A stretch of DNA of 35,776 nucleotides from Bacteroidales bacterium (GCA_003501665.1 DNOQ01000096.1:812-36587), one strand, 5' to 3'; positions 6,114-30,792 are shown, counted from the first letter of the stretch. Numbers and translations are program-made. Notes: generated by a model from the sequence alone, not told the origin.

Positions 6114-7088
6114 TTAATAATTCATCCTATGAGGAATCACACCTCTGACGCCACCTCTTGGATTGAGGGTATCCCCCTTCCTTCGCGGGATAAGGTGAAT
6201 ATGGCAATGCCATATGGTCTGACCTGCAACCTCGCCTGAGTTGGCCCCGGTATTAAATCCTTCAATGCTTGAATCTGATCGGAGAAGTTCTTTGCGCCTG
6301 ATTCTTATAATGTCATGAACCGCTATATGTTCCTTCTGGGTGATATCGAAATAGTCGGAGAAATGACGTTTAGGGATGATCAGGGTATGTCCCTCTGAAA
6401 CAGGATAACCGTCCAGCGTGGCAAAGGCATAATCATTTTCGTGAAGTATTTTGCCTCCCCGAGATTTCTTGCAGAAAATACAATCCTCCTTATAGTCTTC
6501 TGCTATTATCTTTCTGAAATCAGTGTCATCAGTATCGCGCTTTGTTCTGTTACAGGTCGAGCATAATACCTGAAGGTTCTCATAGACTGTCTTTCCGCCC
6601 TTAGCCTTTGGAATGATATGGTCGATATCCAATGGCTTGTCATCTATTGTTATCCCGCATAAAGCACATCGCCCTTTTGCCTCCTTTAACACTTGGTATC
6701 GAAGGACATCGGAAACGGCGGTGTCATCAAGGAGCCTATAATCCCAGGTACTGAGTCCACGTGAGACAATGAATTCCTGTATTTTTTGTTCACACAGCTT
6801 CTTGATCTCGGCCTTCTGTTCTAATGTCATTTTCCTTACTTTCAGGCTGACAAGTTCCCCGTCGCGTGCAATGATCCCATGCTTGGACAATACCTTTATA
6901 GGCATCTCCTTAAGTCTCTTCTCGTAGTAGAGGATTTGACTTTCATCGCTGGCAAGAAAATTTGCTGCCAACTGCCTGATCGTTGAGATTCCGCCGGACT
7001 CGATAAGGGATTTGATCAGGAGGGGCTGATAAATATGACTCATCCTCATGGTAGAGGCAAGAAAATCACGCAATTCAGCAAATGTCAT
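6114..7088 (-). CDS. Three-domain fusion: N-terminal winged-helix-like domain + HNH endonuclease + HIT (histidine triad) nucleotide hydrolase/transferase
   Basis: The HNH core is CALCG...DIDHIIPKAKGG...NLQVLCSTCNRTK. The HIT domain is GYPVSEGHTLIIPKRH...WHCHIHLIPR (HxHxHxx triad). The N-terminal ~130 aa (MSHIYQPLLIKSLIESGG...) is helical and wHTH-like. Confidence 0.8.
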   Translation of the reverse strand: MTFAELRDFLASTMRMSHIYQPLLIKSLIESGGISTIRQLAANFLASDESQILYYEKRLKEMPIKVLSKHGIIARDGELVSLKVRKMTLEQKAEIKKLCEQKIQEFIVSRGLSTWDYRLLDDTAVSDVLRYQVLKEAKGRCALCGITIDDKPLDIDHIIPKAKGGKTVYENLQVLCSTCNRTKRDTDDTDFRKIIAEDYKEDCIFCKKSRGGKILHENDYAFATLDGYPVSEGHTLIIPKRHFSDYFDITQKEHIAVHDIIRIRRKELLRSDSSIEGFNTGANSGEVAGQTIWHCHIHLIPRRKGDTLNPRGGVRGVIPHRMNY

Positions 7089-8567: not shown

Positions 8568-11198
8568 ATGAGCCATCTCTACCAAAAAATATCTTTATTA
8601 AGAAAGCAGTGGGGTAATGATTCGTATCCCTGCGAAGAATACCCCGCCATATCAGAAATACTTGAATACCAGATTGAACCTGAGACCAAAACTCCACTAT
8701 TTCTCAGGATTCCACAGGTTACTGCTCTTGAAACATACTGGTATTTGCGGTTGATGGAGAAGGCGCCGCATATTTTTGATCTTTATAAGAAGAATTTTTC
8801 AAAAAAAACAGACCTCATTAAATCACTTGGCATCTCAAAAGAAGCTTTTGAGACTGTAGATTATGAGTTCGACGACCTAATTGATAGAATCAAAAATGAT
8901 GAAAATTTTGTAAAAGATTTCAAACTTGAATCTATTCGGGAAACGCTGACGCTTGAATATCCAAGTTATATCCTTGCCCTTGCCATGGGTGCCGGGAAAA
9001 CAATTCTTATAGGCTCAATTATCGCCACTGAATTTGTCATGGCTTTAGAATATCCTGAAGGACCTTTTGTTCAGAATGCCCTTGTGTTTGCACCAGGTAA
9101 AACAATTATAGAATCTTTGCGGGAACTCTCAGAGATTCCTTATGAAAAAATATTACCTCCCCGTTTTTATAATCAATTTGCAGCAAGTTTGAAATTAACG
9201 TTTACCCGAGATGGAGAAAAAAACATACCTGTCATCCGTGGGTCTTCTTTTAATGTTGTAGTTACCAACACCGAAAAGATCCGCATTCAGAAAGAGTCTA
9301 TAAGAAAAGGCGAGATAGGAAACCTGTTTGTTCCGGAACGGGAAGACGAGGCAAAGGCAGAGATTGCTAACCTTCGCCTTCAGGATATCGCAAGTCTTCC
9401 ACATCTTGCGGTATTTTCTGATGAAGCACATCATACTTACGGTCAATCAATGGGAAAAGAACTGAAAAAAGTCCGCAAGACCGTTGACTATCTTTACCAG
9501 AACAGTCCGAATCTGATTTGCGTTATAAATACAACGGGCACACCTTATTTTGAACGACAACCATTGAAAGACGTTATTGTGTGGTATGGATTGTCGGAAG
9601 GTATTGCCGGAGGCATATTGAAGGATGTTGCCGACAACATCCGAGCTTATAGTTTCAGCAACGAAAACGCTCCTCAATTTTTGGGTGAGGTTGTAAAAGA
9701 TTTTTTCAAAGATTATGCGGGTGTCTGTCTCCCAAATGGCGCTCCCGCAAAAATTGCAGTATATTTTCCACAAAATGAAGATCTGTCACAACTCCGTCCT
9801 ATTGTAGAATCTGCACTTATTGAAATCGGACAATCACCCTCAATTGTTCTCCGAAATACATCAGAATCAACTAAAGATGAGATAGATGCCTTTAACCGTT
9901 TAAATGTTCCTGAATCTCTACACCGCGTTATTTTGCTTGTCAACAAAGGGACTGAAGGCTGGAACTGTCCGAGTCTTTTTGCCTGTGCCCTGGCACGTAA
10001 ACTCAAATCTTCAAATAATTTTGTTCTGCAGGCTGCTACGAGATGCCTCAGACAGGTTCCCGGCAACAGTGTTAGTGCTCGGATTTATCTTTCGATGGAT
10101 AATCGGAGCATCCTTGACCGCCAATTGCAGGAGACGTATGGAGAAACTATATCTGACTTGATCAATGCAGGTCGTGAGAGAGGCACAGCTCTTCTAAAAC
10201 TCAGAAAATTCAATATGCCTCCATTGGTTTTTACTCAAACCATAAGGACAGTCACACGAAGAGATAATACTTTAGAAACAACGCTCTCACTTGAAAGACC
10301 ATCATTGAAAAAAAGCGGCCTAACCGAAGTATTTTTTACTCTTTCGAAACAACAGGCAACAAAGAGCGTATTACAACAGGTTGGCGACAGCGTTCATATG
10401 GATTCAGTTGAAACATTCACTGATACATATACTGCCGCTGTTGAGTTATCACAGAATTACAGGCTTGATCTCTGGATTATATATGATGAATTGATGAAAT
10501 TGTATGGCAAGAAAGCTGAAATTCCATATGCTCATCTGCCTGTCCTATGCAGACAGATCGAGGAGCAGACACGCTTTTATGAGATAAAGGAAGAGAAAAT
10601 AGATTTTGCTCTTGCTCTTGTAAAACCCGAAGGGTTCTCAAAGGAAAAAGAACAGGATGGCACAGAGGTTTTTACAGCAGAAATCACCTATTTCAAAGAT
10701 AGAGAGAAGCTTCTTCTAAACGTAGAAGATATTCGAGATAATCAAAACAACTTAGGGTTTCACTATGCTCCATATAATTTCGATTCAACTCCTGAAAAAT
10801 CGTTTTTTGAACAGATGCTCAAGCGACTGAATCTTCATCCATCAGAAATCGAGGATATATATTTCACAGGCGCTCTCACGGACAGAAACAAGACAGATTT
10901 TTTCGTCGAATATAAGGACGATAAAGGTAAGTGGCGGAAATACACGCCTGATTTCATCATTCGCAAGAAAGCTAAAGGAAAGAAGCAGGGGAAATGCTAT
11001 ATTGTGGAAATCAAGGCTGACAGATTCCGCGATGACAATCTCGATGGGGAAAATGGTAGGAAAGCTATGGCGTTGAGGAAGTTGGAAAAGATTAACCCAG
11101 AACTTTTGAAATATGAGATAATTTATACCGGTACTGATACAATTTCCTATGACCAAAATAAAGGTGTGCGAGAGTTTGTTGAGAAGGTTCAGGAATGA
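8568..11198 (+). CDS. res: Type III restriction enzyme Res subunit (SF2 DEAH helicase + C-terminal PD-(D/E)xK nuclease)
   Basis: Walker A is LAMGAGKT. The DEAH box is FSDEAHHTYG. Motif III is NTTGTP and motif VI is QAATRCLR. The C-terminal nuclease motif is YTPDFII...CYIVEIKADR. The stop overlaps the start of the methyltransferase gene (ATGA). Confidence 0.85.
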   Translation: MSHLYQKISLLRKQWGNDSYPCEEYPAISEILEYQIEPETKTPLFLRIPQVTALETYWYLRLMEKAPHIFDLYKKNFSKKTDLIKSLGISKEAFETVDYEFDDLIDRIKNDENFVKDFKLESIRETLTLEYPSYILALAMGAGKTILIGSIIATEFVMALEYPEGPFVQNALVFAPGKTIIESLRELSEIPYEKILPPRFYNQFAASLKLTFTRDGEKNIPVIRGSSFNVVVTNTEKIRIQKESIRKGEIGNLFVPEREDEAKAEIANLRLQDIASLPHLAVFSDEAHHTYGQSMGKELKKVRKTVDYLYQNSPNLICVINTTGTPYFERQPLKDVIVWYGLSEGIAGGILKDVADNIRAYSFSNENAPQFLGEVVKDFFKDYAGVCLPNGAPAKIAVYFPQNEDLSQLRPIVESALIEIGQSPSIVLRNTSESTKDEIDAFNRLNVPESLHRVILLVNKGTEGWNCPSLFACALARKLKSSNNFVLQAATRCLRQVPGNSVSARIYLSMDNRSILDRQLQETYGETISDLINAGRERGTALLKLRKFNMPPLVFTQTIRTVTRRDNTLETTLSLERPSLKKSGLTEVFFTLSKQQATKSVLQQVGDSVHMDSVETFTDTYTAAVELSQNYRLDLWIIYDELMKLYGKKAEIPYAHLPVLCRQIEEQTRFYEIKEEKIDFALALVKPEGFSKEKEQDGTEVFTAEITYFKDREKLLLNVEDIRDNQNNLGFHYAPYNFDSTPEKSFFEQMLKRLNLHPSEIEDIYFTGALTDRNKTDFFVEYKDDKGKWRKYTPDFIIRKKAKGKKQGKCYIVEIKADRFRDDNLDGENGRKAMALRKLEKINPELLKYEIIYTGTDTISYDQNKGVREFVEKVQE

Positions 11199-13072
11199 CC
11201 GAGAAAAAGGAAATTAAGATAAAACCCGCGAAGGGAAGGCCGATGCTCACATGGGTCGGCAAGCGACCCTTAAAAAGCGTTGCTGCTTTCCCTGCTCAGC
11301 ATATTGAAACATATGATCCAAACAATGAACTCAGCAATGAGAAAGCTGAAGATCTCTGGAAAGTCTGGCCTGAAAAATATCCAAAAGGTGGCCTACTGTT
11401 CCATGGTGACAACAAGGAAGTCCTTGCCCATCTCCTCGCAAACGGATTCCGTGGAAAGATAAATCTGATATATATTGATCCTCCATTCGATTCGGGTGCT
11501 GATTATGTCCGAAAGGTTCAACTGAGAGGTGTCGAGGGCATAACAAAAATTGACGGCGAAACCTATACACTTGGAGAGCAGATACAGTATACCGACATTT
11601 GGGCAAATGATAACTATTTGCAGTTTATGTATGAGAGATTATTACTCATGAAGGAGCTATTAGCCGAAAATGGATGCATTTGGGTACATTGTGATTGGCA
11701 TAAAAGTCATCATTTACGTTTCTTAATGGATGAGGTGTTTGGTAGTGATCATTTTATGAACGAAATTGTATGGCGTTATGTAAAGTTTCAAATGGGAGAG
11801 ATGGGAAGATTCGCTAATAATTCAGATCGCCTTTTACTTTATAAAAAGTCACTTGAAAAATGGGTTTTCAATCCAATTAAGTTCAAATTGGAGATTCCCA
11901 AAAAACTACTCAAAAAAGGCTGGGACAAAGAAAGTGGAACAATTCAAAATATCAAAGATGAGAATGGGAAAACCCAAAAAATTGAAATTACGGAAGAAAA
12001 GGTAGATGATGTTTGGAATCTACAATTTATGGGAGCAACATCTGGAGAGAGAACTGATTATCCAACTCAGAAGCCTGAAAGAGTATTGGAAAGGGTTATT
12101 CAATCAACTTCAAATCCCGGCGATATAGTGCTCGATTGCTTCCTCGGCTCAGGTACAACAACAGCAGTTGCTCAGAGATTAGGTCGAAAATGGATCGGAT
12201 GTGATATTAATAAAGGAGCAATTCAAATAACAGCAAAACGTCTACAAACAATCATACAAGAGCAGATAGAAGCCTTTGAGAAGAGTAAAATTAAGAATTC
12301 TCAGGTTAAACTCATTGAAATTGAAGAAAAAAAAGAAATAGAGCAGGGACAGCTCGCTTTTACCGTTTGGCGGGTAAACGACTATGACCTGCAGATTCAG
12401 CATAATGAGGCCGTGAATCTTGCCTGTGAGCATATAGGAATAGAACGAACACGGTCTGATGTTTTCTTTGACGGAATCATTGGAAAGAAGCTTGCAAAGA
12501 TTATCCCCTTTAATCACCCTCTTTCACCAATTGATCTTGAGGAGATCAAGAGAGAACTCGATGTACGTCCTGATGAGGATAGGAATATTCTTGTCGTCTG
12601 CCTAGGCAAAGAGCTTGCAGCAGACGTGTGGGTTGATGAATGGAACAGGCTTCGCAGGGGGAAGAATGCTGTCAATAAAATAGAAATTGTAGAACTCCGT
12701 ACTGATCCGAAATATGGGAAATTCATAGAACATAAATCGGCTTCGGCAAAGTTATCTATAACGCGAAGCAAGGACAAGATTAAAGTAAAGATCGAGGATT
12801 TTATTAGTCCCAGCATCGTCGAGCGGCTTGATATAGATATGAAAATATTTAGGGCAAAAATAACGGACTGGCGGAGTATGGTAGATTGCATCATGATTGA
12901 CACTGCATATAACAGCGAAGCCTTTAATATTATCCTTTCAGATATCCCCGAGAAAAAAACTGATATAGTAATAGGTGAATATGAATTGCCAGTGCCCCAG
13001 CAAACAACTACTGTTGCGGTTAAGATCATCGACATGCTGGGTGAAGAACTGATTCTTACAAAGGTGGTATAA
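11195..13072 (+). CDS. mod: Type III-like DNA methyltransferase Mod subunit (beta-class N6A/N4C MTase)
   Basis: Motif IV is LIYIDPPFDSG. It is followed, after a variable (TRD-like) region, by TQKPERVLERVI and the AdoMet motif I VLDCFLGSGTTTAVAQRLGRKWIGCDIN. This is the beta-class motif order expected of Type III Mod proteins. Confidence 0.85.
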   Translation: MTEKKEIKIKPAKGRPMLTWVGKRPLKSVAAFPAQHIETYDPNNELSNEKAEDLWKVWPEKYPKGGLLFHGDNKEVLAHLLANGFRGKINLIYIDPPFDSGADYVRKVQLRGVEGITKIDGETYTLGEQIQYTDIWANDNYLQFMYERLLLMKELLAENGCIWVHCDWHKSHHLRFLMDEVFGSDHFMNEIVWRYVKFQMGEMGRFANNSDRLLLYKKSLEKWVFNPIKFKLEIPKKLLKKGWDKESGTIQNIKDENGKTQKIEITEEKVDDVWNLQFMGATSGERTDYPTQKPERVLERVIQSTSNPGDIVLDCFLGSGTTTAVAQRLGRKWIGCDINKGAIQITAKRLQTIIQEQIEAFEKSKIKNSQVKLIEIEEKKEIEQGQLAFTVWRVNDYDLQIQHNEAVNLACEHIGIERTRSDVFFDGIIGKKLAKIIPFNHPLSPIDLEEIKRELDVRPDEDRNILVVCLGKELAADVWVDEWNRLRRGKNAVNKIEIVELRTDPKYGKFIEHKSASAKLSITRSKDKIKVKIEDFISPSIVERLDIDMKIFRAKITDWRSMVDCIMIDTAYNSEAFNIILSDIPEKKTDIVIGEYELPVPQQTTTVAVKIIDMLGEELILTKVV

Positions 13073-13078
13073 TTAATT

Positions 13079-13639
13079 ATGCTTATTGAGCATGATAGAG
13101 AAAAACTGCTCAATTCAATAATTTATTTCCTGAGCAATACAAAATTCTGCGGTAAAACAAAGCTGTTCAAGCTTTTGTACTACCTTGATTTTATGCATTT
13201 CAGGGAGACGGGGCGCTCTGTAACTAATCTGGATTATTTTGCATGGAATTTTGGGCCTGTCCCCAAAAAACTTTTTGAAGAGATGGAAAATCCGCCTTCT
13301 GATTTAAAAGAGAGTATAATTATTCCTCCAAAGATTAGTGAAAAAATATTTGTCGAAATGAAACCAAAGAAAAGGTTTTATGACAAATATTTTACGAAGA
13401 GGGAACTGCGCATATTAGAAAAAGTGGCATTTATCTTCAGAGACGCTGAGGCCGAGCATATGGTTGAAGCATCTCATTTACCGAATCATCCATGGGATAA
13501 GACAATCAAAATGAATGGCGAGTATGAAAAAATAGATTACACACTTGCTTTAGATGATAGTGAAGATTCTCTGCCATTAGAAGAAGTGATAGAAAGGATA
13601 AAAGAGAAAAAGGAGCTTAAAAAAGTCTTTAATGAATAA
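13079..13639 (+). CDS. Panacea-domain (DUF4065, SocA/GepA-like) antitoxin candidate
   Basis: The N-terminal segment KLLNSIIYFLS...GKTKLFKLLYYLDFMHFRETGRSVTNLDYFAWNFGPV matches my memory of the DUF4065/Panacea signature (KL.KLLYy.D......g.pit...y.a...GPv). It starts 6 nt after the mod stop and overlaps the next ORF by 8 nt. Confidence 0.7.
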   Translation: MLIEHDREKLLNSIIYFLSNTKFCGKTKLFKLLYYLDFMHFRETGRSVTNLDYFAWNFGPVPKKLFEEMENPPSDLKESIIIPPKISEKIFVEMKPKKRFYDKYFTKRELRILEKVAFIFRDAEAEHMVEASHLPNHPWDKTIKMNGEYEKIDYTLALDDSEDSLPLEEVIERIKEKKELKKVFNE

Positions 13640-14027
13640 AGGGGCAATCCTTTTCCACAGGGATTTCCAGTTCCACAACGGTCAATCAGGTGAGAAATTA
13701 ATAATAGTTCTCAACACACCAAAAGACAAAGAGCCATATCTTTGCTGCAAAACAACCTCAAAACAGAAATTCAATATCGACAAAGAAGGATGCCATAGCC
13801 CAAAGAACGTCTATGTCATAAATTCAACGATCGACTGGTTTAAAGTAAAAACATGGGTGCAGTTCCATGAGCTATACGAATTTGAACCGCAGAAATTCTT
13901 ACAGGCACATTTTAAGGGTGTTTTGGAAATAAAAGGAGAATTAAAAGAAAGTACTGTAAATGCAATAAGGAACTGCATAAGGCGCTCTGAAGATGTCTCC
14001 ATATATCATCTCTCTCTATTGTCTTAA
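13632..14027 (+). CDS. Putative toxin partner of the Panacea antitoxin (PanT candidate); possibly a MazF/PemK-like fold
   Basis: 131-aa ORF translationally coupled to the DUF4065 gene. The N-terminus KGAILFHRDFQFHNGQSGEKLIIVLN...CCKTTS loosely follows the G-x-I-h..dF....G.E...RP.hVh...T pattern of MazF/PemK toxins. The fold assignment is unverified. Confidence 0.45.
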   Translation: MNKGAILFHRDFQFHNGQSGEKLIIVLNTPKDKEPYLCCKTTSKQKFNIDKEGCHSPKNVYVINSTIDWFKVKTWVQFHELYEFEPQKFLQAHFKGVLEIKGELKESTVNAIRNCIRRSEDVSIYHLSLLS

Positions 14028-15424: not shown

Positions 15425-18400
15425 ATGCCTTATAGTTCGAATGATTTTGAGATTCTGCTGGAACGAATTGTCAAGCGAAAAAGTTCTGCGGATGCTCATC
15501 AGGCTTGGGATGAATTGCATCAACTCGCGGGGAAAGAACGTCAACGATTATTTATCAAATGCATACAGCAACACGATATTGTTAACTCTAATGCTACCCT
15601 ATATTTATACCAATTTGGATATTGGTATCCTGATGAAACATTAAATATTCTTAAGACTGTGGCCCAAGATGGTAGCCTATTAGCTTGGCAAATATTATGT
15701 GCTCAGTTATCACGACAAGATATTTATAGTGATGGAGAGCGATGTCATCCCTTTAAGCCTATTGAAAATGCAGCGGAACTTGAAATAAAAACTGCTGCAG
15801 TAGATGTCATTCAGCAGTTCATTATTCAAAATCTTTTAAACTCAGATTTACGTCTTGTTTCGCAGATAGCAGAGGCTCTTTCAAGAGCACCTTCCCTAAG
15901 CGCATTAGAATTTCTTACTGACATAGTGTCTAATAGGAAATATGATACAGACCGGCGATTAATTCTATGCGTCGGCGTTAAATGCGTGGCCGAAGCACTC
16001 TATACAAAGCTCAAGCAAAGGGATTGGATTTCAATGGCACAAAAACTTGCAGTTATAGTGACAAATAATGAAGAAGATTTTAATATCCGCGGTGAATTAG
16101 CATATGTTTTCCTTTTTTTTCCGCTGCCCGAAGGAATTTCCGCTGTTCGCAGTCTCATTGAAAATACAAAAAAAACTGGCTTCGGATCTGTCTATTTGGC
16201 TGATCTTGATAATCTTCTTAAGGATTTAGAGAAATGTGACGTCACTTCTGATAACGACATTTTACCCCATTTAACTGCAGATGAAATCATCCAAGCTATC
16301 ATGGGTTTTTCAAAGAAATCGATATATAGTTACGGTCGCTGGGGCGAAGCCCTTTCCCAGGGTTCAACCCTGTGTCTAGAGACAGGAGATACCAAGACAT
16401 TCCATTACTCAAAAGAAGTTATTGATAAATGCATTGGAATCATTCATCCGTTTGATAAGGACGATCCGGAATGGTGTGATCGTTATGTAAAGCTTTTAGT
16501 CGAGGCTGTTTGTTTCAATGGACCGCCAGAAGCTATGTTTCAGTGCATAGTGGCTGGTGCAAGTCGATCATTAAATAAAGTGAAGTTATTCAATGTATTA
16601 AACTTTCTTCAATTAGCATTTAACAATATTAATAGACTTTACATCCCGTCAATTATAGAACGCTTTGGCTTGTTAGGTGAACTGGGCATCTTGTCAGGGC
16701 AGAAAGCTCAGAATGAGGGGCAAACAGATCTTGCAATTTCCTTTTACGAATTAACGGCTAAGTTAATGGAGGGTCGAATAGATGAGCATTTTGCGGGAGC
16801 GCTTATGTCTCTTGGAATATTGTATTCCACTCTGGAGGATTGGCCTAACGCTTTGACTTACTTAGAGCGGGCTCGTCCTATTCTTGTACAGATCGAAGAC
16901 CAAGAGAATTTGGCAACTTGTTTAATGGAGATTGGAGTTGCTGAACAGGTACAAGGCAACTATGAAGCATCTAGGCATCATTTAGAATCTGCTTTATCTA
17001 TTTGTGAACCACTTGAGTCTGCCACACATTTTACTGCCCTGCCTCATTGTTTATCACACCTGGCAGATTTGGGTATCGAAGACGGCTCATTATCAAAATC
17101 TGAGGCTATAGAATTGATTGATCGAGCTATTAATCTCGCAAGAGAACGTAAAGATTTTGGGTTAGAAAATTTATTGCTTCATAAAAAGGAAGATATCTTG
17201 GGCCTGTTTAAGATTAAAAATGATTTCGATCATAATGTTCGCAGGATGTACTCTCAAATTGAAGCCAGCCAAGGAGACGATTTTTGGGCTGCGGTTAATT
17301 CTGAATTACGTGAGGCATCAGAATTGGACGGTAGGGCCAATTTCCAGTTCGAAGAAATAGCGAGCGACTTAAGATATAGTGCTCTCTGTCTTTATATACG
17401 AGCCTATATTCGCTTAACCTTTGCCGAAGAGTTTGAGGTTCTACGGCATACTATTGATAATGACATAGACGTCAAAGCACCTAAGTCAGCAAATCATATT
17501 ATTAGTCGAATTATCGACATTCTTATCACCAGAGGAGATATAAATTGGGCAATGGAATTCGCTGATCGTTCCAAATCGAGGTCTTTAATTCGCTTGTGTC
17601 AGCTTTCTCGTTTTGACGTTTTATTAAACAACAAGTCATCGGTACCATCCTACCTAATAACTGAGATTAACGAAACAACGAAGCGTCTCAGCAGCCTCAT
17701 CCATTCTAAGGGCTTAAGTGACTCGGAAGAAGCAAGAAATATTCATTTACGGTTAAAGGACTTAATTTCCTATCTTCCTGCTCCAATACGTAATTCGTTC
17801 GGAATAGATCAAGCGATTAATGATTATATGACATTGCGTAGAGAACTCAAAAATATAGACGATTTCACCAAGATGACCAAAGAGTATTCAGAATCTAAGG
17901 AGTCACCTTTACTAGATTTGTATAAAGGATGGTTGCCATCAGAGACGCTTCCCGAAATAGCCTCATTTCTTAATCCCGATGAGCGCTTAATCGAATACTA
18001 CTTAGATAATGAAAATGATGGTCACATATTTATCCTTGATCCAGATGGAGTAGCACATCATGCATACCTCAATGTTTCCGAGGAAAAGCTCATCTCTCTA
18101 ATATCACAACTTATACCAAATTCCTTCGTTCTTGATAATTCGAAGGAACCCTCAGGCTGTACGGCTATGTTGAGCGAGCTTTATGATATTTTAATTCGTC
18201 CCATTAATAATTGGATTTGTTCTGACACACGCAAAGTCAAGAGATTAGTCATTGTTCCTCACGGACCTTTATTTAATCTGCCATTCGCGCCACTCTGGAA
18301 TAAAGAGCGTCGTCGTTACTTAATTGAAGACTTTGAACTGACAGTAATTCCTAACGGCGGATTTCTTCACTTATTGCAATCTTCAAAAAGACAACTGCCA

Positions 18401-19015
18401 AAAAAGTTTAAATTTGCAGGTTTCTATAATGCGTCTAACATGATGGAAGACTTACCAGAAACTGAGCGAGAGTTAAAAGAAATAATATCTATATTGTCCT
18501 CTGATTCCGAAGTCATAGGCATAGCGACAGGAAAAGAAATGACTCGCCAGCGGTTCATTCATCTTTGCAATCAAGCAGATATCATACATTATGCGGGGCA
18601 CGCAGTATTCATTCCAGATTCACCGATGGACTCCTACTTACCTCTGGCTGCTGCAGAAAGCGGTACATATGGTCATGAAGATCGGTTATCATGTAGCGAA
18701 ATGATTGAGCAATTGCATCTGAAGTCTACCATCTTTTTTCTGAGTGGATGTGAATCTGGGCGCTCAGAAATGCGTGGCCAAATGGAAATAGCTGGTTTCC
18801 TAAGAACCGCATTTTTGTGCGGAGCATCAACCGTCATATTTTCACTTTGGCCATTACCGGATACTCGTGAAACTGTATCAATTGTGAGCCATTTTTATAG
18901 AAATCTGATTTTTTCAGGTGAAAGTTGCTCCAATGCACTTCGAAATGCTATGTTATCAATGCGCAATATGCATCCCTGGTTTTGGGCTGGTTTTCAAATG
19001 TCTGGGATTCTATAG
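15425..19015 (+). CDS. Large TPR/HEAT-repeat protein with a C-terminal CHAT (caspase-like) peptidase domain
   Basis: 1196 aa. The middle region has TPR-like repeats (e.g. ISFYELTAKLMEG...ALMSLGILYSTLEDWPNALTYLERA...). The C-terminal ~300 aa carries CHAT hallmarks: LVIVPHGPLFNLPFAPLW, the catalytic His context IIHYAGHAVF and the catalytic Cys context IFFLSGCESG. Confidence 0.85.
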   Translation: MPYSSNDFEILLERIVKRKSSADAHQAWDELHQLAGKERQRLFIKCIQQHDIVNSNATLYLYQFGYWYPDETLNILKTVAQDGSLLAWQILCAQLSRQDIYSDGERCHPFKPIENAAELEIKTAAVDVIQQFIIQNLLNSDLRLVSQIAEALSRAPSLSALEFLTDIVSNRKYDTDRRLILCVGVKCVAEALYTKLKQRDWISMAQKLAVIVTNNEEDFNIRGELAYVFLFFPLPEGISAVRSLIENTKKTGFGSVYLADLDNLLKDLEKCDVTSDNDILPHLTADEIIQAIMGFSKKSIYSYGRWGEALSQGSTLCLETGDTKTFHYSKEVIDKCIGIIHPFDKDDPEWCDRYVKLLVEAVCFNGPPEAMFQCIVAGASRSLNKVKLFNVLNFLQLAFNNINRLYIPSIIERFGLLGELGILSGQKAQNEGQTDLAISFYELTAKLMEGRIDEHFAGALMSLGILYSTLEDWPNALTYLERARPILVQIEDQENLATCLMEIGVAEQVQGNYEASRHHLESALSICEPLESATHFTALPHCLSHLADLGIEDGSLSKSEAIELIDRAINLARERKDFGLENLLLHKKEDILGLFKIKNDFDHNVRRMYSQIEASQGDDFWAAVNSELREASELDGRANFQFEEIASDLRYSALCLYIRAYIRLTFAEEFEVLRHTIDNDIDVKAPKSANHIISRIIDILITRGDINWAMEFADRSKSRSLIRLCQLSRFDVLLNNKSSVPSYLITEINETTKRLSSLIHSKGLSDSEEARNIHLRLKDLISYLPAPIRNSFGIDQAINDYMTLRRELKNIDDFTKMTKEYSESKESPLLDLYKGWLPSETLPEIASFLNPDERLIEYYLDNENDGHIFILDPDGVAHHAYLNVSEEKLISLISQLIPNSFVLDNSKEPSGCTAMLSELYDILIRPINNWICSDTRKVKRLVIVPHGPLFNLPFAPLWNKERRRYLIEDFELTVIPNGGFLHLLQSSKRQLPKKFKFAGFYNASNMMEDLPETERELKEIISILSSDSEVIGIATGKEMTRQRFIHLCNQADIIHYAGHAVFIPDSPMDSYLPLAAAESGTYGHEDRLSCSEMIEQLHLKSTIFFLSGCESGRSEMRGQMEIAGFLRTAFLCGASTVIFSLWPLPDTRETVSIVSHFYRNLIFSGESCSNALRNAMLSMRNMHPWFWAGFQMSGIL

Positions 19016-19035
19016 ATGGAAAAAAACGAGTTCAT

Positions 19036-19416
19036 ATGAAAAATTCATCTGACGTGACTTTTCAAATAGCTATCGATGCTAATATTATGTCTTGTCTAGA
19101 TCTAAGAAAACGTCTGGAAGCTCTGATTTCTAAAAGTCATACCGACATTTTACTTGAAATAAGAAAACCCGAAATTAGAACCCGAGGTATAGATCCCACT
19201 ATCCTTGTCGCAACTGTAGGAGCTATTGGTGCTGGTCTTGGTGCTTTAATAACTGGGCTTTTGAAAATAGCTCAAGGGAGTTCTGCAAAAAGGATTATAA
19301 TTCAATCTCGGAAAGGAGCACGTATAGAATTCCCCGCTGATATGAAATCTGATCAAATTGATGTCTTAATAGATAAGTTAATAAAATTGGATGCTGATAA
19401 AATCATCATATCATAA
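19036..19416 (+). CDS. Small single-pass membrane protein, EACC1-like (effector-associated constant component) candidate
   Basis: I chose the ATG at 19036 (MKNSSDV...), 20 nt after the CHAT stop. The supplied ORF's upstream start at 18925 would overlap the CHAT C-terminus. 126 aa. The layout is an N-terminal soluble part (LRKRLEALI...LEIRKPE), one Gly/Ala-rich TM helix (ILVATVGAIGAGLGALITGLL), then RIIIQSRKGARIEFPADM...IDVLIDKL. From memory, this layout matches the EACC1 family that Aravind and co-workers predicted next to CHAT/trypsin effectors. Confidence 0.6.
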   Translation: MKNSSDVTFQIAIDANIMSCLDLRKRLEALISKSHTDILLEIRKPEIRTRGIDPTILVATVGAIGAGLGALITGLLKIAQGSSAKRIIIQSRKGARIEFPADMKSDQIDVLIDKLIKLDADKIIIS

Positions 19417-19887
19417 CTTCAACACATTAGCCCTAATGAAACTGGGGATGCTGTTGAAAAGTTAATTGTCATATAGAATTACGTCATTAACCTGCATGCC
19501 GTCGACTTGGCACTATTGCCAGACACGGGATACAAGATATCGAAGAAGACATTTTAAAAAAATAGACCCAATTCCGGTGGCACTACTAATCTATTTCCGC
19601 TTATAACCTGCATAATTCAAGAAATACTCGCTCGTGAGAAGTACTGTGAGGATGTTATTCTGCGCTGTTCACCTTCTATATAGGTGTAAGTAAACACTTG
19701 ACATATCTTGTAATTTTTAGGAAATTACTGGTAGTAATATATATGCTTTCTTTATTTTTCGGGCAAAAGAAGATGATAAATTCCTGCACGTGGGATATAT
19801 TTATAGCTCCTATTGCACAACGCAAATATTCCACGATAAATCTGCGATCGAGGGGCAAAGAGATGGAAGCAATTGAAGTGGCAGAAA

Positions 19888-21306
19888 ATGGATAAGATCA
19901 GGGCTGAAAGAATCGCAAAAGAGGTTATCGGGTCAGAGATCGGTGGCTGGAAAGTTCTTGAGCTTATAAATTATGGGAAATCTGCTGTCGTTCTTAAAGC
20001 GGAGAAGTCGGCTGCTCTGAAAATCTTTGATCGCGAACTAGTTGAAAGATTTGGCGAGGCTGCGCAGGAAGAGCGAATCAATCGCGAGTTGTCTTTGCGT
20101 GGTAAGCAACATGAGAACCTTGTCGAAATTTTCGATGGAGGTAAATGCCCTCGCACGGGGTATTACTTTATTGTAATGACATATATCGATGCGCCAAATT
20201 TGGCAAGCGTTTTAAATGATATTCCACGTGAACAAATTTGGTCGATCATTTCGCAAGTCGCTCGAGCTGCTCATTTTCTTGAAAGTCTTGAAATTGCCCA
20301 TAGAGATATAAAACCAGAGAATATAGCTATCAGCATAGATTATCGAAAGGCAGTATTGCTGGACTTGGGTGTCATTCGTCCATTCAAGGTTGAGAGTTTA
20401 ACAGATGCCGAGCAACGAGTCTTTCTTGGGACACTACGCTATAGCTCACCCGAGTTTCTGTTTCGCAAAGAAGAAAATAGTTTAGAGGGATGGCGGGCTT
20501 TAACATTTTATCAATTAGGGGCTGTTCTCCATGATATGATTATGCAAAGGTGTTTGTTTGATGAGTTTTCTGATCCATTTGCCATGTTAGTAGAAGCAGT
20601 TAAACACGAGACTCCAGTTATCAACGCTACTGATGTTTCACCTGATTTGGTATTGCTCGCAAGAAATTGCCTGAGCAAACCAGTTGACTTGCGACTCCGC
20701 CTATTAAAATGGGAAGATTTTGAACCAAGGGCTACCAGTTCTACTTCTGCCAGCGAGGCTAGGGAAAGAGTTAGGAAAAGAAAAACATATTATAAAGAGC
20801 AAGCAAAACAAAGCTATGATGAAGACATAGAAAGGGAGATAAGGGCAACCAAACAAATAATTGACGAAATGAGCACGAAGATCCAGGCTGTTATAAGTCG
20901 AGAATGCATTAGCAGTGGCTTTTTCCCTCCCATCGAAATCCACGATTTCCTGCAAGGATCTTCGCCCAAAGTAGCGAGTTTTTTACTTTGCATCTCCAGT
21001 TCCGAGGAATATGGTTTAAAAAATGTGATTTCCATTCTTTTTTTGATAGAGCTTTTAGAGCAGAAAGATAGAATTGTCAGCCTTAATTATGTTTCAGGCT
21101 TGTATAATAAAAACATAGACGTGGAAGGATTCAAAGAGCAAAGGTCAACAACTTTTTTTGAAGGTGCCTTTGAGGAAGCTGTCATAAAGAATAAGCTTCG
21201 CGATATACTATACCTTCTATTTGATAAGGCGCAACAAAGCGAGGGAATGAAGTCAAATGCGGAAATACTCAGAGAACCTGAATGGATAACTATTGATGAG
21301 CCATAA
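19888..21306 (+). CDS. Hanks-type Ser/Thr protein kinase with a ~190-aa uncharacterised C-terminal domain
   Basis: Subdomain II Lys lies in AALKIF and the alphaC Glu in INRELSL. The catalytic loop is HRDIKPENI. The DFG equivalent is DLG and the activation/P+1 segment is GTLRYSSPE. The supplied ORF starts at a TTG at 19873; I prefer the first ATG at 19888 (MDKIR...). I recognise no motif after about residue 290. Confidence 0.8.
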   Translation: MDKIRAERIAKEVIGSEIGGWKVLELINYGKSAVVLKAEKSAALKIFDRELVERFGEAAQEERINRELSLRGKQHENLVEIFDGGKCPRTGYYFIVMTYIDAPNLASVLNDIPREQIWSIISQVARAAHFLESLEIAHRDIKPENIAISIDYRKAVLLDLGVIRPFKVESLTDAEQRVFLGTLRYSSPEFLFRKEENSLEGWRALTFYQLGAVLHDMIMQRCLFDEFSDPFAMLVEAVKHETPVINATDVSPDLVLLARNCLSKPVDLRLRLLKWEDFEPRATSSTSASEARERVRKRKTYYKEQAKQSYDEDIEREIRATKQIIDEMSTKIQAVISRECISSGFFPPIEIHDFLQGSSPKVASFLLCISSSEEYGLKNVISILFLIELLEQKDRIVSLNYVSGLYNKNIDVEGFKEQRSTTFFEGAFEEAVIKNKLRDILYLLFDKAQQSEGMKSNAEILREPEWITIDEP

Positions 21307-21320
21307 CATACTTTAAGCAA

Positions 21321-22481
21321 ATGAACGAAACGTGGTGGGTTGGACCTGAACAATTAGATGTTGATCAAAAGACTATTATTTCTTTGCCTTTAGATGGAAG
21401 CCATCTCATTATTGGGCCGCCGGGGTCAGGTAAAACTAATCTATTACTTCTTCGTGCAAATTACACATTTCTTTCGGGCAGTAGAAATATATCGGTCGTC
21501 GTATTTACGAAGACTCTGCGGGATTTCATTGCCTCCGGTGCGAGGCATTATGCCTTTCCCATGGAAAAAGTGACCACTTGTCGCAAATGGCAATTGGATC
21601 TCTTATATGAATATGGCGAGAGAGTTGTTTTGTCAGAAGGTAAATTCAACGAACAAAGAGCATTCATTGTTGCCAAAGTGAATGAATTAATAACAACAAA
21701 AAAACTTGAAAATATATACGATGCTTTGTTTTTGGATGAATCTCAGGATTATACTCCCGAGGAAATTATGATCTTCAAAAGATTGGGGAAAGTAGTATTC
21801 GCTGTTGCTGATTCGAGGCAGAAAATCTATCAAGGCAAAGATTCCATTGAGACGGTTAAGAGCGCCGTGGATTATACCCACCCTCTAAGGTTTCATTATC
21901 GGAACGGCCTCGCCATCTGCAAGTTTGCGGATGCCATCGCAAAAGACTCCCCCGATTATGAGAAGCTCGCGGAAACATCAAATTACGATGAAGTTGCAAG
22001 ACCTTCCTCTGTTGAAGCCTTTAGCTGTGCTGATCTGAATGAGCAAGCCGCAAGAATTATCGAGAAATTGAAAATCCAATTGAAAGCTTATCCCGATGAA
22101 ATGCTATGCGTCATTTGTCCAAAGAAGGAAGACCTTTTAGTCATATGGGAAGTGGTCCAGGAATCAGAAATTGCAGCACAGTGCATTTTACACGGCATCG
22201 ATGGTTATATTTCACTGAGCACAACAACTTGTATATTCTTTTGTTCCTTACATTCTGTCAAAGGCTTAGAATCTCGCGCTGTTCATATAGCAGGATGTGA
22301 GTTTCTAAAACGTTTTCCGCATAATAGGAATATGGCATTCACAGCAGTGACACGAGCTAAGACGTCGTTATCTCTTTATTACTCCAGTGTTTTGCCCGGA
22401 TATCTTGAACAAGCTATACAGTTACTTCAACCTTTGCCCGATCTACCTGAAATGAAAGATGTTTTTGGAGGCAGAAAATAA
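21321..22481 (+). CDS. Minimal UvrD/PcrA-like SF1 helicase (core motifs only, 386 aa)
   Basis: Walker A is IIGPPGSGKTNLLLLRA. Motif Ia is VVVFTKTLRDF and motif II is LFLDESQDY. Motif III-like is AVADSRQKIY. Motif V is SLHSVKGLESRAVHI and motif VI is FTAVTRAKTSLSLYY. It starts 14 nt after the kinase stop. Confidence 0.75.
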   Translation: MNETWWVGPEQLDVDQKTIISLPLDGSHLIIGPPGSGKTNLLLLRANYTFLSGSRNISVVVFTKTLRDFIASGARHYAFPMEKVTTCRKWQLDLLYEYGERVVLSEGKFNEQRAFIVAKVNELITTKKLENIYDALFLDESQDYTPEEIMIFKRLGKVVFAVADSRQKIYQGKDSIETVKSAVDYTHPLRFHYRNGLAICKFADAIAKDSPDYEKLAETSNYDEVARPSSVEAFSCADLNEQAARIIEKLKIQLKAYPDEMLCVICPKKEDLLVIWEVVQESEIAAQCILHGIDGYISLSTTTCIFFCSLHSVKGLESRAVHIAGCEFLKRFPHNRNMAFTAVTRAKTSLSLYYSSVLPGYLEQAIQLLQPLPDLPEMKDVFGGRK

Positions 22482-23858
22482 ATGTGGACAAAAAATACTA
22501 GTCGCGGCGAATTACTTGATCTATTGCAGGCTGAGCGACCCCTCTCAATGAGAAATTCATCTCAGTATGATTTGCTGAATTCAGATTCGCATAGTGACCT
22601 ACAAATTGCTTGGAAAGAAAAACCTTCACAGGAGTCTGCACTACCAAGGGCGATTATAGTACCTCATAACAAGAAAAGAGATTTTTTAGCATGGGCCCTA
22701 ACATATCTAACAAATTTCAGACCATTTACAGCTTACTTTAGAATATTTACGAAAGAAGACGTTGAGAAGTATACGATAGAACAGGAGCCATCATTAGGTA
22801 AACTAGAAAGCGTATGCCTTGGCATTATTTTGGGAGAAGCTGCAACCTATTTGGATACGCATGATATTCGCCAGTTATCTCCAAGCGGTTGTTCAAGGAC
22901 TTTCTCCTTTGCTATGTCACGAGCCTTAGCTTTAGGTTTGTTAAAAAATGAGGGGAATGCTGATATGGCAAATGCATGGCAGATGGCGCGGCACCTAACA
23001 AATCAGCCCAAGTTAAATCTGAATGTTGAGTATCTTCTGATCCCGTGGTCCGTAATTCTACTGCTCGCTGATATCGTTGGTATTGAGAAGGATCATCCAC
23101 CACAAAACATATTAGACGCGTGTCGCGATCTATTCAACAAAGGAGATATTGAAGATTCTAACTGGATGACTTTTGTCAGTACTTTCCCAGAGCATAAAGA
23201 TGTTCTAACACTAATGCGAGGTACACGTGAAGAAAGAGTAGTAACTTTTGAGAAGATGTTCAATATGTTGCTGCCTATGAAAAACAAAGATGAGACAACA
23301 TGTGCTTTTTTGTGTGGCTACTTGGCCAGCTTAATAGCGCCAGGCGCTATTGATCACCTGAACTTGTTAAGACCATATGTTCGAGAGTTACCGTCCATTT
23401 TATTATGGTATGGTCTTTGTACAGGTTTGCGCAATCATTCAAGCATGAAGAACTACTCGCTAGGACTGGGTCGTCGTATCCTTCGGGATTTGCTCCAATA
23501 CGAGTTCTTTATCGATCGACCTAGATGTGATATTTCGCTTGCTGAATTAGAATTGTTAGTCGTCGATAATAAGATGACTTTAGATTTTCGTACAGGGCGC
23601 TCGGGACAAATGGAAATTGAAATTGCCCCTTGTGTTACAACCACGGTGAAATGGCCGCCACCGAGCGACCATCAGCAAGAATTGCACATGAGGAGTGAAA
23701 TTGAGTATGAAATTGCAGATCTCGAGGCTGATGTCACTTTGGCTCTCGCTAAAATGGAAAATGTTAGACGTAGATTATCACACCTAACCCAAATACGCGC
23801 ATCAAAAAGTACTGATATAGAACAGAAATATAGAAAAGGCAAGAAAAAAGGTCGGTAG
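22482..23858 (+). CDS. Hypothetical 458-aa protein, third gene of the kinase-helicase operon
   Basis: The ATG follows the helicase stop directly (taaATG). It looks predominantly helical, with a C-terminal coiled-coil-like, Lys-rich tail (EIADLEADVTLALAKMENVRRRL...KYRKGKKKGR). I recognise no catalytic or family motif. Confidence 0.7.
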   Translation: MWTKNTSRGELLDLLQAERPLSMRNSSQYDLLNSDSHSDLQIAWKEKPSQESALPRAIIVPHNKKRDFLAWALTYLTNFRPFTAYFRIFTKEDVEKYTIEQEPSLGKLESVCLGIILGEAATYLDTHDIRQLSPSGCSRTFSFAMSRALALGLLKNEGNADMANAWQMARHLTNQPKLNLNVEYLLIPWSVILLLADIVGIEKDHPPQNILDACRDLFNKGDIEDSNWMTFVSTFPEHKDVLTLMRGTREERVVTFEKMFNMLLPMKNKDETTCAFLCGYLASLIAPGAIDHLNLLRPYVRELPSILLWYGLCTGLRNHSSMKNYSLGLGRRILRDLLQYEFFIDRPRCDISLAELELLVVDNKMTLDFRTGRSGQMEIEIAPCVTTTVKWPPPSDHQQELHMRSEIEYEIADLEADVTLALAKMENVRRRLSHLTQIRASKSTDIEQKYRKGKKKGR

Positions 23859-23992: not shown

Positions 23993-24067
23993 GTCTGGTA
24001 GCCAGGGTTCATTGCTGAACCCCAGCCCCATAAGAACCGTGCTTGTCAGTTTCCCGACACACGGCTC
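23993..24067 (-). mobile_element. Group II intron 3' remnant: ribozyme domain V plus domain VI with a bulged branch-point A
   Basis: On the minus strand, 24067->24034 reads GAGCCGUGUGUCGGGAAACUGACAAGCACGGUUC. This is 34 nt with an AGC triad, a GAAA tetraloop and a 2-nt bulge, versus the canonical domain V GAGCCGUAUGCGAUGAAAGUCGCACGUACGGUUC. A 4-nt linker follows, then a hairpin (GGGCUGGGGUUCA-GCAA-UGAACCCUGGCU) with an unpaired A at 23999, 7 nt before a terminal AC at 23994-23993. No RT ORF or recognisable domain I is present upstream. Confidence 0.65.
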
Positions 24068-24412
24068 AAGCCTTTCATAAGCTGCTTTCAGCAGCCGGTT
24101 CCACAACCTCCATTTGTGCATGTGTGGTAATTATAGAGAATCATGGTGTCAGACTTGTTTATTGCAATTTGCTGAATTTGGGGACTTAATCTGTACTTCG
24201 CTTATGCAATGTCAAGCATGGAGACGCTTTTAGCCTCGGCTAATCCGTTATGATGGAAAGACATGAGTTTTAATTATTTCCGAATTAACATCCTACATAA
24301 AAACGCGCACTCATGTTTGTACTTTTCCCCTCTAAAAAAAACGATTATGCCAACTCTCAGGGGATATTACGGCGGGACTCCTGAATTGCTCATAGAGTCC
24401 CGCCGTTTGTTG

Positions 24413-29817: not shown

Positions 29818-30780
29818 ATGACAGAAAACGCAGATAAGGAAATAAAATCAACCGAGAGATACGACAGCAAGAAATGTCTGGACGCAGCTGCAGACAAGTT
29901 GTTGGGAGACATTAACAGAGAGGAGATTGTGCAGATACCGGTGGACAAAATAATGGCCAACCGTTTCCAGCCAAGAAAGTACTTTAAAGAAGAATCCCTG
30001 GCGAGTCTTGCCGAAACGATAAAAGAAGACGGCGTGCAGCAGCCGATAACAGTAAGGAAGATTGAAGAAGAAAACTCACCCTTTCTCTTTGAACTGATAG
30101 CAGGAGAACGGAGATTGAGGGCTTCAAAAATTGCAGGGCTCGAAAAGATTCCGGCAGTCATAAAGGAAAAAAGTGACAGAGAGGTAAAAAAACTTGCCCT
30201 CCTTGAGAACCTGCAAAGGGAAGACCTTACGTACTTTGAAACCATGATGTCTATTGTCGGATTGAAAGAAGAATACGGAAGCAACGAGGAAGTCGCTCAT
30301 GCCATAGGTCTTACAAGAAGAAGCGTAGAACAATATCTGAAGATGCATACGGAAATCTCCACTCTACCGGAGGTATTTGCACTAGTGGAAAAGAAGCAGT
30401 CGGCTCTGAGCAGGAAGAATCTGCAAGATACAGCTGCCCTCATTCCCGAACTGAGAAGATACCAGAAATCGGACAAGAGAGAGTTCGAACGCTTTATCAG
30501 GAGAGTCAGGGAGAAAGGGCTCGTTGTTGCCGTGGAGAAATTAGTGAGAAAGATTGAGGGCCGGAATGCCGAAAAGAATAAAAGTGCAGCTCCCGATACA
30601 CATTCGCTTGATGACATATTCAGGGAAACAGAAGACAGACTCGTGATAAGAATTAACTTACTGAAAGACGCCCTCCCCTCTGATGAAGATCTGGGGAAAA
30701 TTCACTCAGCCATAGATCATTTTTTTAAGAGGATTGACGAGGTTGTGAAAGATTCGATTCCTGAAAGTGCGTCTGAATAG
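29818..30780 (+). CDS. parB: ParB/Spo0J-family (ParB N-terminal nuclease-like/CTPase domain) protein
   Basis: VQIPVDKIMANRFQPRKYF...SLASLAETIKEDGVQQPITVRK...LIAGERRLRASKIAGLEKIPAVI carries the ParB box motifs, including GERR. Strong RBS AAGGAGGAG. Confidence 0.85.
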   Translation: MTENADKEIKSTERYDSKKCLDAAADKLLGDINREEIVQIPVDKIMANRFQPRKYFKEESLASLAETIKEDGVQQPITVRKIEEENSPFLFELIAGERRLRASKIAGLEKIPAVIKEKSDREVKKLALLENLQREDLTYFETMMSIVGLKEEYGSNEEVAHAIGLTRRSVEQYLKMHTEISTLPEVFALVEKKQSALSRKNLQDTAALIPELRRYQKSDKREFERFIRRVREKGLVVAVEKLVRKIEGRNAEKNKSAAPDTHSLDDIFRETEDRLVIRINLLKDALPSDEDLGKIHSAIDHFFKRIDEVVKDSIPESASE

Positions 30781-30792
30781 CGCTGATCTGAA

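Follow-up and report, generated by a model that had tools for sequence, protein, structure and literature searches.

A TPR-CHAT protease and a small EACC1-like protein form a candidate protease-effector defence cassette in a Bacteroidales genome

In a stretch of 35,776 nucleotides (nt) from a Bacteroidales bacterium (GCA_003501665.1 DNOQ01000096.1:812-36587), referred to below as the window, a gene for a 1196-amino acid (aa) protein with tetratricopeptide repeats (TPR) and a CHAT protease domain lies just upstream of a gene for a 126-aa protein with a single central hydrophobic segment. We consider it moderately probable that these two genes act on their own as a defence cassette of the EACC1 type, made up of a protease and its effector, in which the CHAT protease would cleave the small protein to yield a membrane-damaging fragment. 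The analysis established the domains of the protease, the conservation of its His/Cys dyad, the membership of the small protein in a family, the remote link of this family to EACC1, its adjacency to CHAT genes, and the mobility of the pair. In our judgement, the locus belongs to a known kind of protease-effector module, as a divergent branch that is associated with CHAT proteases and for the most part lacks annotation.

Searches against Pfam identified the CHAT domain (PF12770) at residues 914-1194 of the 1196-aa protein, with a score of 168.8 bits (cut-off 24, E=2.4e-49) and an alignment spanning positions 2-288 of the 289 in the profile. The families TPR_12 (residues 458-528, E=1.6e-11) and TPR_10 (residues 496-528) were also matched, together with a weak hit to the separase family Peptidase_C50 under the cut-off (E=7.9e-6), and a sequence search against the PDB aligned the TPRs of LGN and SPINDLY with residues 432-542. 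Residues 1055 and 1107 are the first positions of the motifs HYAGHA and SGCESG, respectively, and in an alignment of the window protein with 12 other TPR-CHAT proteins, residues H1055, H1059, and C1109 were invariant in all 13 sequences. The His/Cys dyad context is therefore intact, as the first-pass annotation of this DNA, made from the sequence alone, had described along with the TPR-CHAT architecture. The catalytic assignment of His1059 and Cys1109 relies on the general His-Cys dyad of CHAT proteins and caspases, and on this basis the domain is predicted to be a cysteine protease with a conserved dyad.

The N-terminal region of about 420 aa gave no match in Pfam, NCBIfam, or PADLOC. No STAND, NACHT, or other NTPase was detected in the protease with Pfam or NCBIfam, nor does it contain a Walker A (P-loop) motif, and the neighbouring genes encode a kinase and a UvrD-like helicase, in agreement with the absence of an NTPase partner noted at first pass. 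Likewise, neither a transmembrane (TM) segment nor a further fused effector domain was found in its Pfam matches or its AlphaFold2 (AF2) model. This model of the full-length protein, with a mean per-residue confidence (pLDDT) of 60.5, is helical to about residue 846 and continues with a beta segment and the CHAT fold; the pLDDT was 80-91 over the TPR region and mostly below 50 over residues 1-412, which are predicted to be helical. The model is poor and was used for coarse architecture and fold-class matches only. Its best fold matches in the PDB were DdvA (8rw5/8rot) and Csx29 (7zoq/8eey), with E values of about 1e-12 to 1e-11, in addition to separases, so that the architecture corresponds to a familiar one, a helical solenoid followed by a CHAT domain. 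A scan of genome contigs with the large protein returned one distant CHAT match only, from Scytonema, and missed the orthologue at locus L028 that is described below.

The stop codon of the protease gene (19013-19015) is separated by 20 nt from the next in-frame ATG, at 19036, with no terminator-like site between the two genes, and their co-transcription is probable. The open reading frame (ORF) that starts there (19036-19416) encodes the 126-aa downstream protein with a hydrophobic segment that had been recognised at first pass. Its highest-hydrophobicity window on the Kyte-Doolittle scale corresponds to residues 56-74 (ILVATVGAIGAGLGALITG), and residues 55-79 (TILVATVGAIGAGLGALITGLLKIA) make up a single central hydrophobic helix with small and Gly residues, flanked by short alpha+beta segments. 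The protein itself had no match in Pfam, NCBIfam, or PADLOC, and a word-indexed homology search with it found two relatives only. Searches of this type were nearly blind to the family (3 and 7 matches), and an exhaustive search of representatives was required. A profile search over 1.84 billion representatives recovered 508 relatives at E<=1e-3, 297 of them at E<=1e-10, these representatives being clustered at 50% identity and nearly all of them standalone proteins of 110-130 aa. Given this large family, the small ORF can be taken as a real gene and not a chance ORF. Neither the window DNA nor the small protein had a relative in the plasmid collection.

Conservation over 142 family members was centred on the loop that precedes the hydrophobic segment and on the segment itself, which is the most conserved part of the family. 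R50 was present in 133 of the 142 sequences, D or E at position 53 in 139, and P54 in 104; directly after this proline comes the highly conserved T-V-L-V-A-I-V-G-A-x-G-x-x-L-G-A-L-I-x-G-L-L, followed by G94, E98, and P100. The AF2 monomer, for which the family alignment was the input, is a compact alpha/beta structure (pLDDT 88, predicted TM-score 0.78). Its N-terminal part comprises a strand (7-13), a helix (20-31), and a second strand (38-43), and leads through a loop of lower pLDDT that holds RGIDP (44-55) to a C-terminal part with a strand (56-61), a helix (66-81), two strands (86-91 and 96-100), a helix (105-118), and a last strand (120-125). The hydrophobic "TM" segment is thus modelled as strand 56-61 plus helix 66-81 and belongs to the soluble fold in the model, and the compact monomer would fit a soluble autoinhibited pro-form such as that of EACC1. 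A PDB sequence search with the small protein and a PDB fold search with its model gave nothing significant, the best fold match having an E value of 0.05.

EACC1 was defined as a two-gene membrane-associated system, with a 5' EACC1 gene and a 3' gene encoding an N-terminal caspase and any of about 50 alternative C-terminal domains, repeats and STAND NTPases among them (Kaur et al. 2020, PMC7159879, "System 4"). The first-pass annotation, which had made EACC1 part of NTPase-regulated systems, is not supported on this point, and since the caspase is fused to many non-NTPase domains, a missing NTPase is ordinary for the class. The same annotation had also taken the pairing to be experimentally uncharacterised; it was superseded by published work in which the caspase-like domain of KrAvs12 cleaves KrEACC1, with Asp49 as the putative site, toxicity resides solely in the C-terminal fragment, and liposomes are made permeable by cleaved EACC1 (Evans et al., bioRxiv 10.1101/2025.11.14.688446).

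As a model of EACC1 we used Pfam PF19953 (gathering score 23.6 bits). For the NCBIfam EACC1 model that had been proposed for this check, no evidence of its existence was seen in a scan of 95 family members against release 20.0, which gave noise and no EACC1-named match. PF19953, by far the commonest Pfam match, was hit by 26 of the same 95 members at E<=1 (best 9.3e-6), and at E<=1e-4 it was the sole Pfam family matched, by 4 of the 142 members. Two members scanned singly scored 19.9 bits over profile region 44-106, and KrEACC1, in the version given in the supplementary data to Evans et al. (bioRxiv 10.1101/2025.11.14.688446), reached just 28.2 bits over the same region, from which it follows that PF19953 is weak even for a bona fide member. 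We also compared the family with a canonical set of four EACC1s, comprising KrEACC1 and the products of three plasmid genes from Streptomyces and Ralstonia, each located 5' of a gene annotated as "caspase family protein" or of a homologue of such a gene. The family hidden Markov model (HMM) scored 10.6, 2.5, 2.0, and -0.1 bits against these four sequences. In the final hhalign comparison, of the cleaned family alignment with the four canonical sequences, 94 colinear columns were aligned (P=3.8e-4), with D53 opposite Asp49 of KrEACC1; an earlier run against KrEACC1 alone had failed, with an alignment inflated by longer sequences and a single-sequence template. The hydrophobic maxima coincide (residues 56-74 in the window protein and 53-71 in KrEACC1), and a cut after D53 would give computed fragments of 6.07 and 7.63 kDa, next to 5.73 and 7.17 kDa for KrEACC1 cut at Asp49, for which 5.7 and 7.1 kDa were published (Evans et al., bioRxiv 10.1101/2025.11.14.688446). 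In our judgement, these sequence comparisons point to a divergent sister clade of EACC1, to which the name "EACC1-like" can properly be given, although the window protein does not qualify as a member of the Pfam family in the strict sense.

The three canonical EACC1 genes that were fetched are all labelled merely "hypothetical protein" (two by PGAP, the third in its GenBank record), at their positions 5' of caspase-type protease genes (L022, 5956-7638; L024, 1069-3018; L027, 833-3531). In two other loci, an EACC1-like core limited to residues 22-83 was found within a longer ORF of 225-247 aa adjoining a DUF4112 gene (L015, 268-1011; L016, 127-804), which may be a fusion, an extended form, or the product of incorrect ORF calling.

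Inspection of 22 distinct related loci (labelled L0xx) revealed a CHAT gene at most two genes away from the small gene in 13 of them. A further five end within a comparable partner gene (TPR or TPR-PASTA), and one carries a NACHT-like STAND gene that has lost its N-terminus at the contig end. The small-gene family therefore adjoins CHAT or TPR-CHAT genes in most related loci, and together with the weak PF19953 matches of the family this conserved adjacency upholds the first-pass description of the small protein as EACC1-like. The arrangements found are listed in Table 1 (a to h).

Locus L028, on a metagenome contig, contained a 1208-aa orthologue of the protease, 37% identical over 1219 columns with the unannotated N-terminus included, and, 16 nt 3' of its gene, that of a 120-aa protein 48% identical to the small protein of the window. 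The neighbours of this pair (patatin, an insertion sequence (IS) element, a cyclase, and FecR/OmpA/CHASE2/HD genes) are unrelated to those in the window. The presence of the full-length pair amid unrelated neighbours shows that the two genes are a conserved mobile unit. In addition, partial CHAT C-termini located 5' of the small gene in L013 and L019 were 35-39% identical to the CHAT domain of the window protease.

A recurrent three-gene set was also observed in metagenome contigs, in which an operon of CHAT-CHASE2 and TPR-5xPASTA genes converges on the EACC1-like gene (L001, 4499-10802; L007, 7995-14331; L008-L011; partial in L002, L005, and L012). With two extracytoplasmic sensor domains alongside a CHAT protease and a putative pore former, it may represent a membrane- or cell-wall-sensing variant, and no description of this arrangement was found in the literature searched. 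The DUF4071/TPR-S and metallophosphatase genes upstream in L001 and L002 had been considered as partners and were dropped, the recurrent neighbour being the convergent CHAT-CHASE2/TPR-PASTA operon.

Table 1. Features of the window and gene arrangements at related loci. Positions are counted from the first nucleotide of the window.
Feature	Position or loci	Strand	Basis or remark
876-aa ResIII helicase protein with weak TnsA-like endonuclease matches, then 625-aa N6/N4 methyltransferase	within 8568-14027	+	
SocA/Panacea-domain protein (186 aa) and overlapping 131-aa protein	within 8568-14027	+	after methyltransferase gene
Gene of 1196-aa protease (all-helical N-terminal part, central TPR, C-terminal CHAT)	15425-19015	+	ORF, Pfam, full-length orthologue in L028
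N-terminal region of about 420 aa, presumed sensor/regulatory part	15425-16684	+	no known domain; kept in L028 orthologue
TPR repeats, about aa 430-600	16712-17224	+	Pfam TPR_12 and TPR_10, PDB sequence matches, AF2
CHAT (caspase-superfamily) protease domain, aa 914-1194	18164-19006	+	Pfam PF12770
Codon of predicted catalytic His1059 (motif HYAGH)	18599-18601	+	invariant in alignment
Codon of predicted catalytic Cys1109 (motif LSGCESG)	18749-18751	+	invariant in alignment
20-nt spacer between the two genes	19016-19035	+	sequence
Gene of 126-aa EACC1-like protein, predicted protease-activated membrane effector	19036-19416	+	ORF, family, AF2, adjacency
Codons R50-G-I-D53-P54, conserved loop before hydrophobic segment, predicted cleavage region	19183-19197	+	family conservation, AF2 loop
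Codons of Gly/Ala-rich hydrophobic segment, aa 55-79, predicted membrane-inserting element	19198-19272	+	Kyte-Doolittle, conservation
Ser/Thr kinase, 477 aa	19873-21306	+	PADLOC PD-T4-6-like, C3a189
UvrD-like helicase, 386 aa	21321-22481	+	PADLOC C3a187 "NERD+UvrD", GajB-like
458-aa protein	22482-23858	+	no Pfam or PADLOC match
Group II intron match	23993-24069	-	Rfam RF00029, 59.3 bits, E=2.3e-9, full model; just 3' of 458-aa gene
(a) CHAT-CHASE2 (about 845 aa) then TPR-5xPASTA (about 1110 aa) operon, convergent with small gene	L001, L007-L011; L002/L003, L005, L012		contig ends inside PASTA protein in L002/L003, L005, L012
(b) Small gene, then TPR-CHAT	L014 (1248 aa), L030/L031 (588 aa); L006		contig cut in L006, assignment probable
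(c) Small gene 3' of TPR-CHAT gene	L028/L029, L013, L019		window-like order
(d) CHAT gene and small gene convergent	L017		
(e) Small gene 5' of gene for N-terminal CHAT plus He_PIG and FGE-sulfatase	L020		canonical EACC1 layout
(f) Convergent NACHT-like STAND gene	L032		N-terminus cut by contig end
(g) TPR gene	L033		cut by contig end
(h) No protease visible	L015/L016, L018, L021		contig ends just 5' of small gene in L015/L016; contigs <2 kb in L018, L021

Comparison with canonical EACC1 systems revealed a shared organisation. In both cases the gene of a caspase-superfamily cysteine protease, fused to variable sensor domains, adjoins that of a small protein (about 115-125 aa) in which short alpha+beta segments flank a single central hydrophobic helix with many small residues; both small proteins have a conserved acidic residue two to three positions ahead of the hydrophobic segment, at the point corresponding to the KrEACC1 cut (Asp49), and similar predicted fragment sizes, and the matches of the family to the Pfam EACC1 model are weak but specific. 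In contrast, the window protein falls under Pfam detection, and most of its clade lies below the gathering score. The window protease is a CHAT protein (PF12770), whereas the protease region of KrAvs12 has no Pfam CHAT match and its homologues in the plasmid collection are annotated as "caspase family protein". The order of the parts differs too, as the protease domain of the window protein is C-terminal, behind N-terminal sensor repeats, and its small gene lies 3', while the canonical peptidase is N-terminal and the canonical EACC1 gene lies 5'. Finally, the clade carries the motif R-x-x-[DE]-P, and three of the four canonical sequences have [TS]-Q-D-[AW]-G instead, the fourth lacking the Asp.

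The closest functional analogue with the same protease family is the bacterial gasdermin/CHAT operon. Bacterial gasdermins (bGSDM) are often paired with CHAT proteases fused to TPR or other repeats (Johnson et al., bioRxiv 10.1101/2021.06.07.447441), and as predicted here they form two-gene abortive infection systems in which the CHAT protein (with TPR, LRR, WD40, or NACHT fusions) adjoins a latent pore former that is activated by removal of an inhibitory piece. The window partner differs from them in its size (126 aa versus about 240-300 aa), in its predicted fold, and in the lack of a gasdermin Pfam match, and the inhibitory piece of bGSDM is a short C-terminal peptide, whereas here, as in EACC1, it would be the N-terminal half. 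The protease also resembles Csx29 of the type III-E Craspase and DdvA, in which a helical or TPR region precedes a CHAT protease. However, the window contains no array-like tandem repeat of a CRISPR and no ORF of the size of Cas7-11 except rpoC, and no Csx30 or sigma-factor substrate or extracytoplasmic function sigma factor lies nearby; moreover, the window protein is much longer, owing to the extra N-terminal region of about 420 aa, and its partner is a small, predicted membrane-active protein. Separase (Peptidase C50) shares the long helical-repeat N-terminus and the C-terminal caspase-like domain, but it is a eukaryotic cohesin protease under the control of securin, and the resemblance is architectural only. 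Unlike STAND and Avs-type systems, the protease has no P-loop NTPase domain (NACHT, NB-ARC, or nSTAND), and the kinase and UvrD neighbours are not conserved with the pair.

By the precedent of KrEACC1, an abortive infection mechanism with activation of a pore former, as proposed at first pass, is the best reading of the pair; cleavage, its position, pore formation, and the phage trigger are all points that we infer from KrEACC1 and KrAvs12. According to this model, the 1196-aa protein would be a latent CHAT cysteine protease held inactive by its helical/TPR part, with no NTPase involved. A trigger derived from the infection would bind the helical/TPR sensor and render the CHAT domain (His1059/Cys1109) active, and this domain would cut the 126-aa partner within the exposed R50-G-I-D53-P54 loop. 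The N-terminal beta-alpha-beta inhibitory piece, of about 6.1 kDa, would thus separate from the C-terminal piece of about 7.6 kDa, which would expose the glycine-zipper-like segment and beta strands, oligomerise in the membrane, and permeabilise it, so that the infected cell would be killed or arrested in an abortive infection. D53 aligns with Asp49 of KrEACC1, but R50 is the most conserved residue, so the exact bond within the predicted site is uncertain.

Several results weigh against this interpretation. Separase, a relative in fold, cuts after Arg. The CHAT protease of Runella cuts bGSDM after Leu247 and not after Asp (Johnson et al., bioRxiv 10.1101/2021.06.07.447441). As CHAT-type proteases are thus not all Asp-specific, the scissile bond could follow R50 and not D53, and Asp-Pro is an unusual P1-P1' pair. 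The link to EACC1 is also remote: among the profile searches suggested at first pass, those for CHAT and TPR succeeded, while the 126-aa window protein itself had no match to PF19953 even at E<=1; only the 10.6-bit score, one of the four obtained with the family HMM, exceeds all of its own 500 shuffles, and the hhalign probability for the family and the canonical EACC1s was 36%. The orientation of the small gene with respect to the protease gene varies (co-directional upstream, co-directional downstream, or convergent), which a substrate relationship allows but does not predict. The role of the N-terminal region as a sensor or regulator is purely inferred, and the structural model is unreliable there (pLDDT <50). 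Toxicity, cleavage, and a role against phages are, for the EACC1-like clade, predictions by analogy.

A different view would make the small protein a membrane-resident sensor or anchor, whose Gly-rich helix would sense a perturbation of the membrane and activate the CHAT protease, which in turn would act on other targets or on itself. Such a role was the one originally proposed for the TM segment of EACC1 (Kaur et al. 2020, PMC7159879). It is favoured by the strong conservation of the hydrophobic segment and by the commonest related arrangement, in which CHASE2 and PASTA, as extracytoplasmic sensor domains, suggest a membrane-associated complex. We consider it improbable, however, in view of the reverse order found in the experiments on canonical EACC1, which is the substrate of the protease and whose C-terminal fragment suffices for toxicity and for the permeabilisation of liposomes; besides, the AF2 monomer buries the hydrophobic segment in a compact soluble fold and not as a free TM helix, and the CHAT protein of the window has neither a TM segment nor another fused effector domain to release. 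Slightly less probable still is a function other than defence, namely regulated proteolysis in development or in cell death brought on by stress, through a module like those of HetF, metacaspases, or DdvA, with the small protein as inhibitor, chaperone, or membrane tether. CHAT proteases do include the developmental protease HetF, and DdvA, the best fold match, is a CHAT-containing anti-sigma factor and hence a regulator. A correlation between EACC1 systems and multicellularity has been described (Kaur et al. 2020, PMC7159879), and fusions of EACC1 modules to DnaK-like chaperones suggest roles in stress (Evans et al., bioRxiv 10.1101/2025.11.14.688446). The genomic context argues in the opposite direction, as the cassette is flanked by a restriction-modification system, a Panacea toxin-antitoxin pair, and a kinase/UvrD candidate defence system, the two-gene unit moves into unrelated neighbourhoods that contain IS elements, and no sigma factor or other regulatory partner is adjacent to the cassette.

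The operon of the kinase, UvrD-like helicase, and 458-aa protein (19873-23858, + strand) starts 456 nt 3' of the small gene and on the same strand, and the pair could in principle be controlled by it or form part of it, with the operon supplying regulation of the NTPase type, as the first-pass annotation had suggested. The kinase and the helicase match the candidate defence models PD-T4-6, C3a189, and C3a187, and two more metagenome contigs with an identical small protein show the same kinase neighbour; these contigs are not independent evidence, though, because they correspond to the same genome segment. Homologues of the kinase, the helicase, and the 458-aa protein were found in none of the related loci, including L028 with its full-length pair, and this led us to reject the linkage. 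Since the pair moves as a unit, the operon is not part of the cassette, and the long intergenic gap suggests a separate transcription unit, so that we regard this option as very unlikely and the operon as probably a separate candidate defence system. As for an adjacency by mere chance of the protease and an unrelated small ORF, which the lack of annotation of the small protein and its few close homologues in the word-indexed search might suggest, it is effectively refuted by the neighbourhood data, given the recurrent association with CHAT genes over many divergent loci, the pair kept as a unit in L028, and spacers of only 16-20 nt.

Pore formers under the control of proteases (gasdermins, Pepco, EACC1) are increasingly recognised as one of the main effector strategies in bacterial immunity, and the locus suggests that the EACC1 principle extends well past the reach of the Pfam model. 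The clade comprises several hundred divergent small proteins with several CHAT layouts, including NTPase-free TPR-CHAT forms and three-gene forms with CHASE2/PASTA, and in the window it is represented by a compact two-gene cassette that is kept as a unit in two unrelated contexts. The profile and the conserved motif can be used to annotate many "hypothetical" genes of about 120 aa adjoining CHAT proteins. Nothing is overturned by these results; they would extend a mechanism described in a preprint of 2025 to proteases of a new family and with a new architecture. More tentatively, and with lower confidence than we give to the EACC1-type cassette as such, the small protein may represent a large EACC1-related clade (at least 500 clusters at 50% identity) missed by the domain libraries, one that is CHAT-specialised and NTPase-free, activated by TPR/N-terminal sensors or, in the CHASE2/PASTA variant, by extracytoplasmic signals, and cut at R-x-x-[DE]-P. 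If so, it would constitute a second, mechanistically distinct, membrane-sensing branch of prokaryotic "mini-pyroptosis".

Regarding the rest of the window, the contig is chromosomal and of metagenomic origin, with genes for a class II ribonucleotide reductase and rpoC also present. Upstream of the cassette, the genes of the 876-aa helicase protein and the 625-aa methyltransferase overlap by 4 nt, and the best PADLOC match of the latter is a type III methyltransferase; the SocA/Panacea-domain protein and the 131-aa protein are likely a toxin-antitoxin pair. The type III-like restriction-modification system, the SocA/Panacea pair, the kinase/UvrD candidate system, and the CHAT cassette make up a defence island. 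No reverse-transcriptase ORF was evident beside the RF00029 match, and the element may be an ORF-less intron or a remnant. The rpoC gene is unsplit (1320 aa) and stands in an unusual neighbourhood, as it is preceded not by rpoB but by genes for a ParB-N-domain protein (320 aa) and a 314-aa protein (29818-35715, + strand). Its unsplit state speaks against a cyanobacterial source, although the closest genome match of the CHAT domain came from Scytonema. Finally, a 324-aa protein encoded at 6114-7088 on the opposite strand is a fusion of an HNH endonuclease and a HIT (histidine triad) domain.

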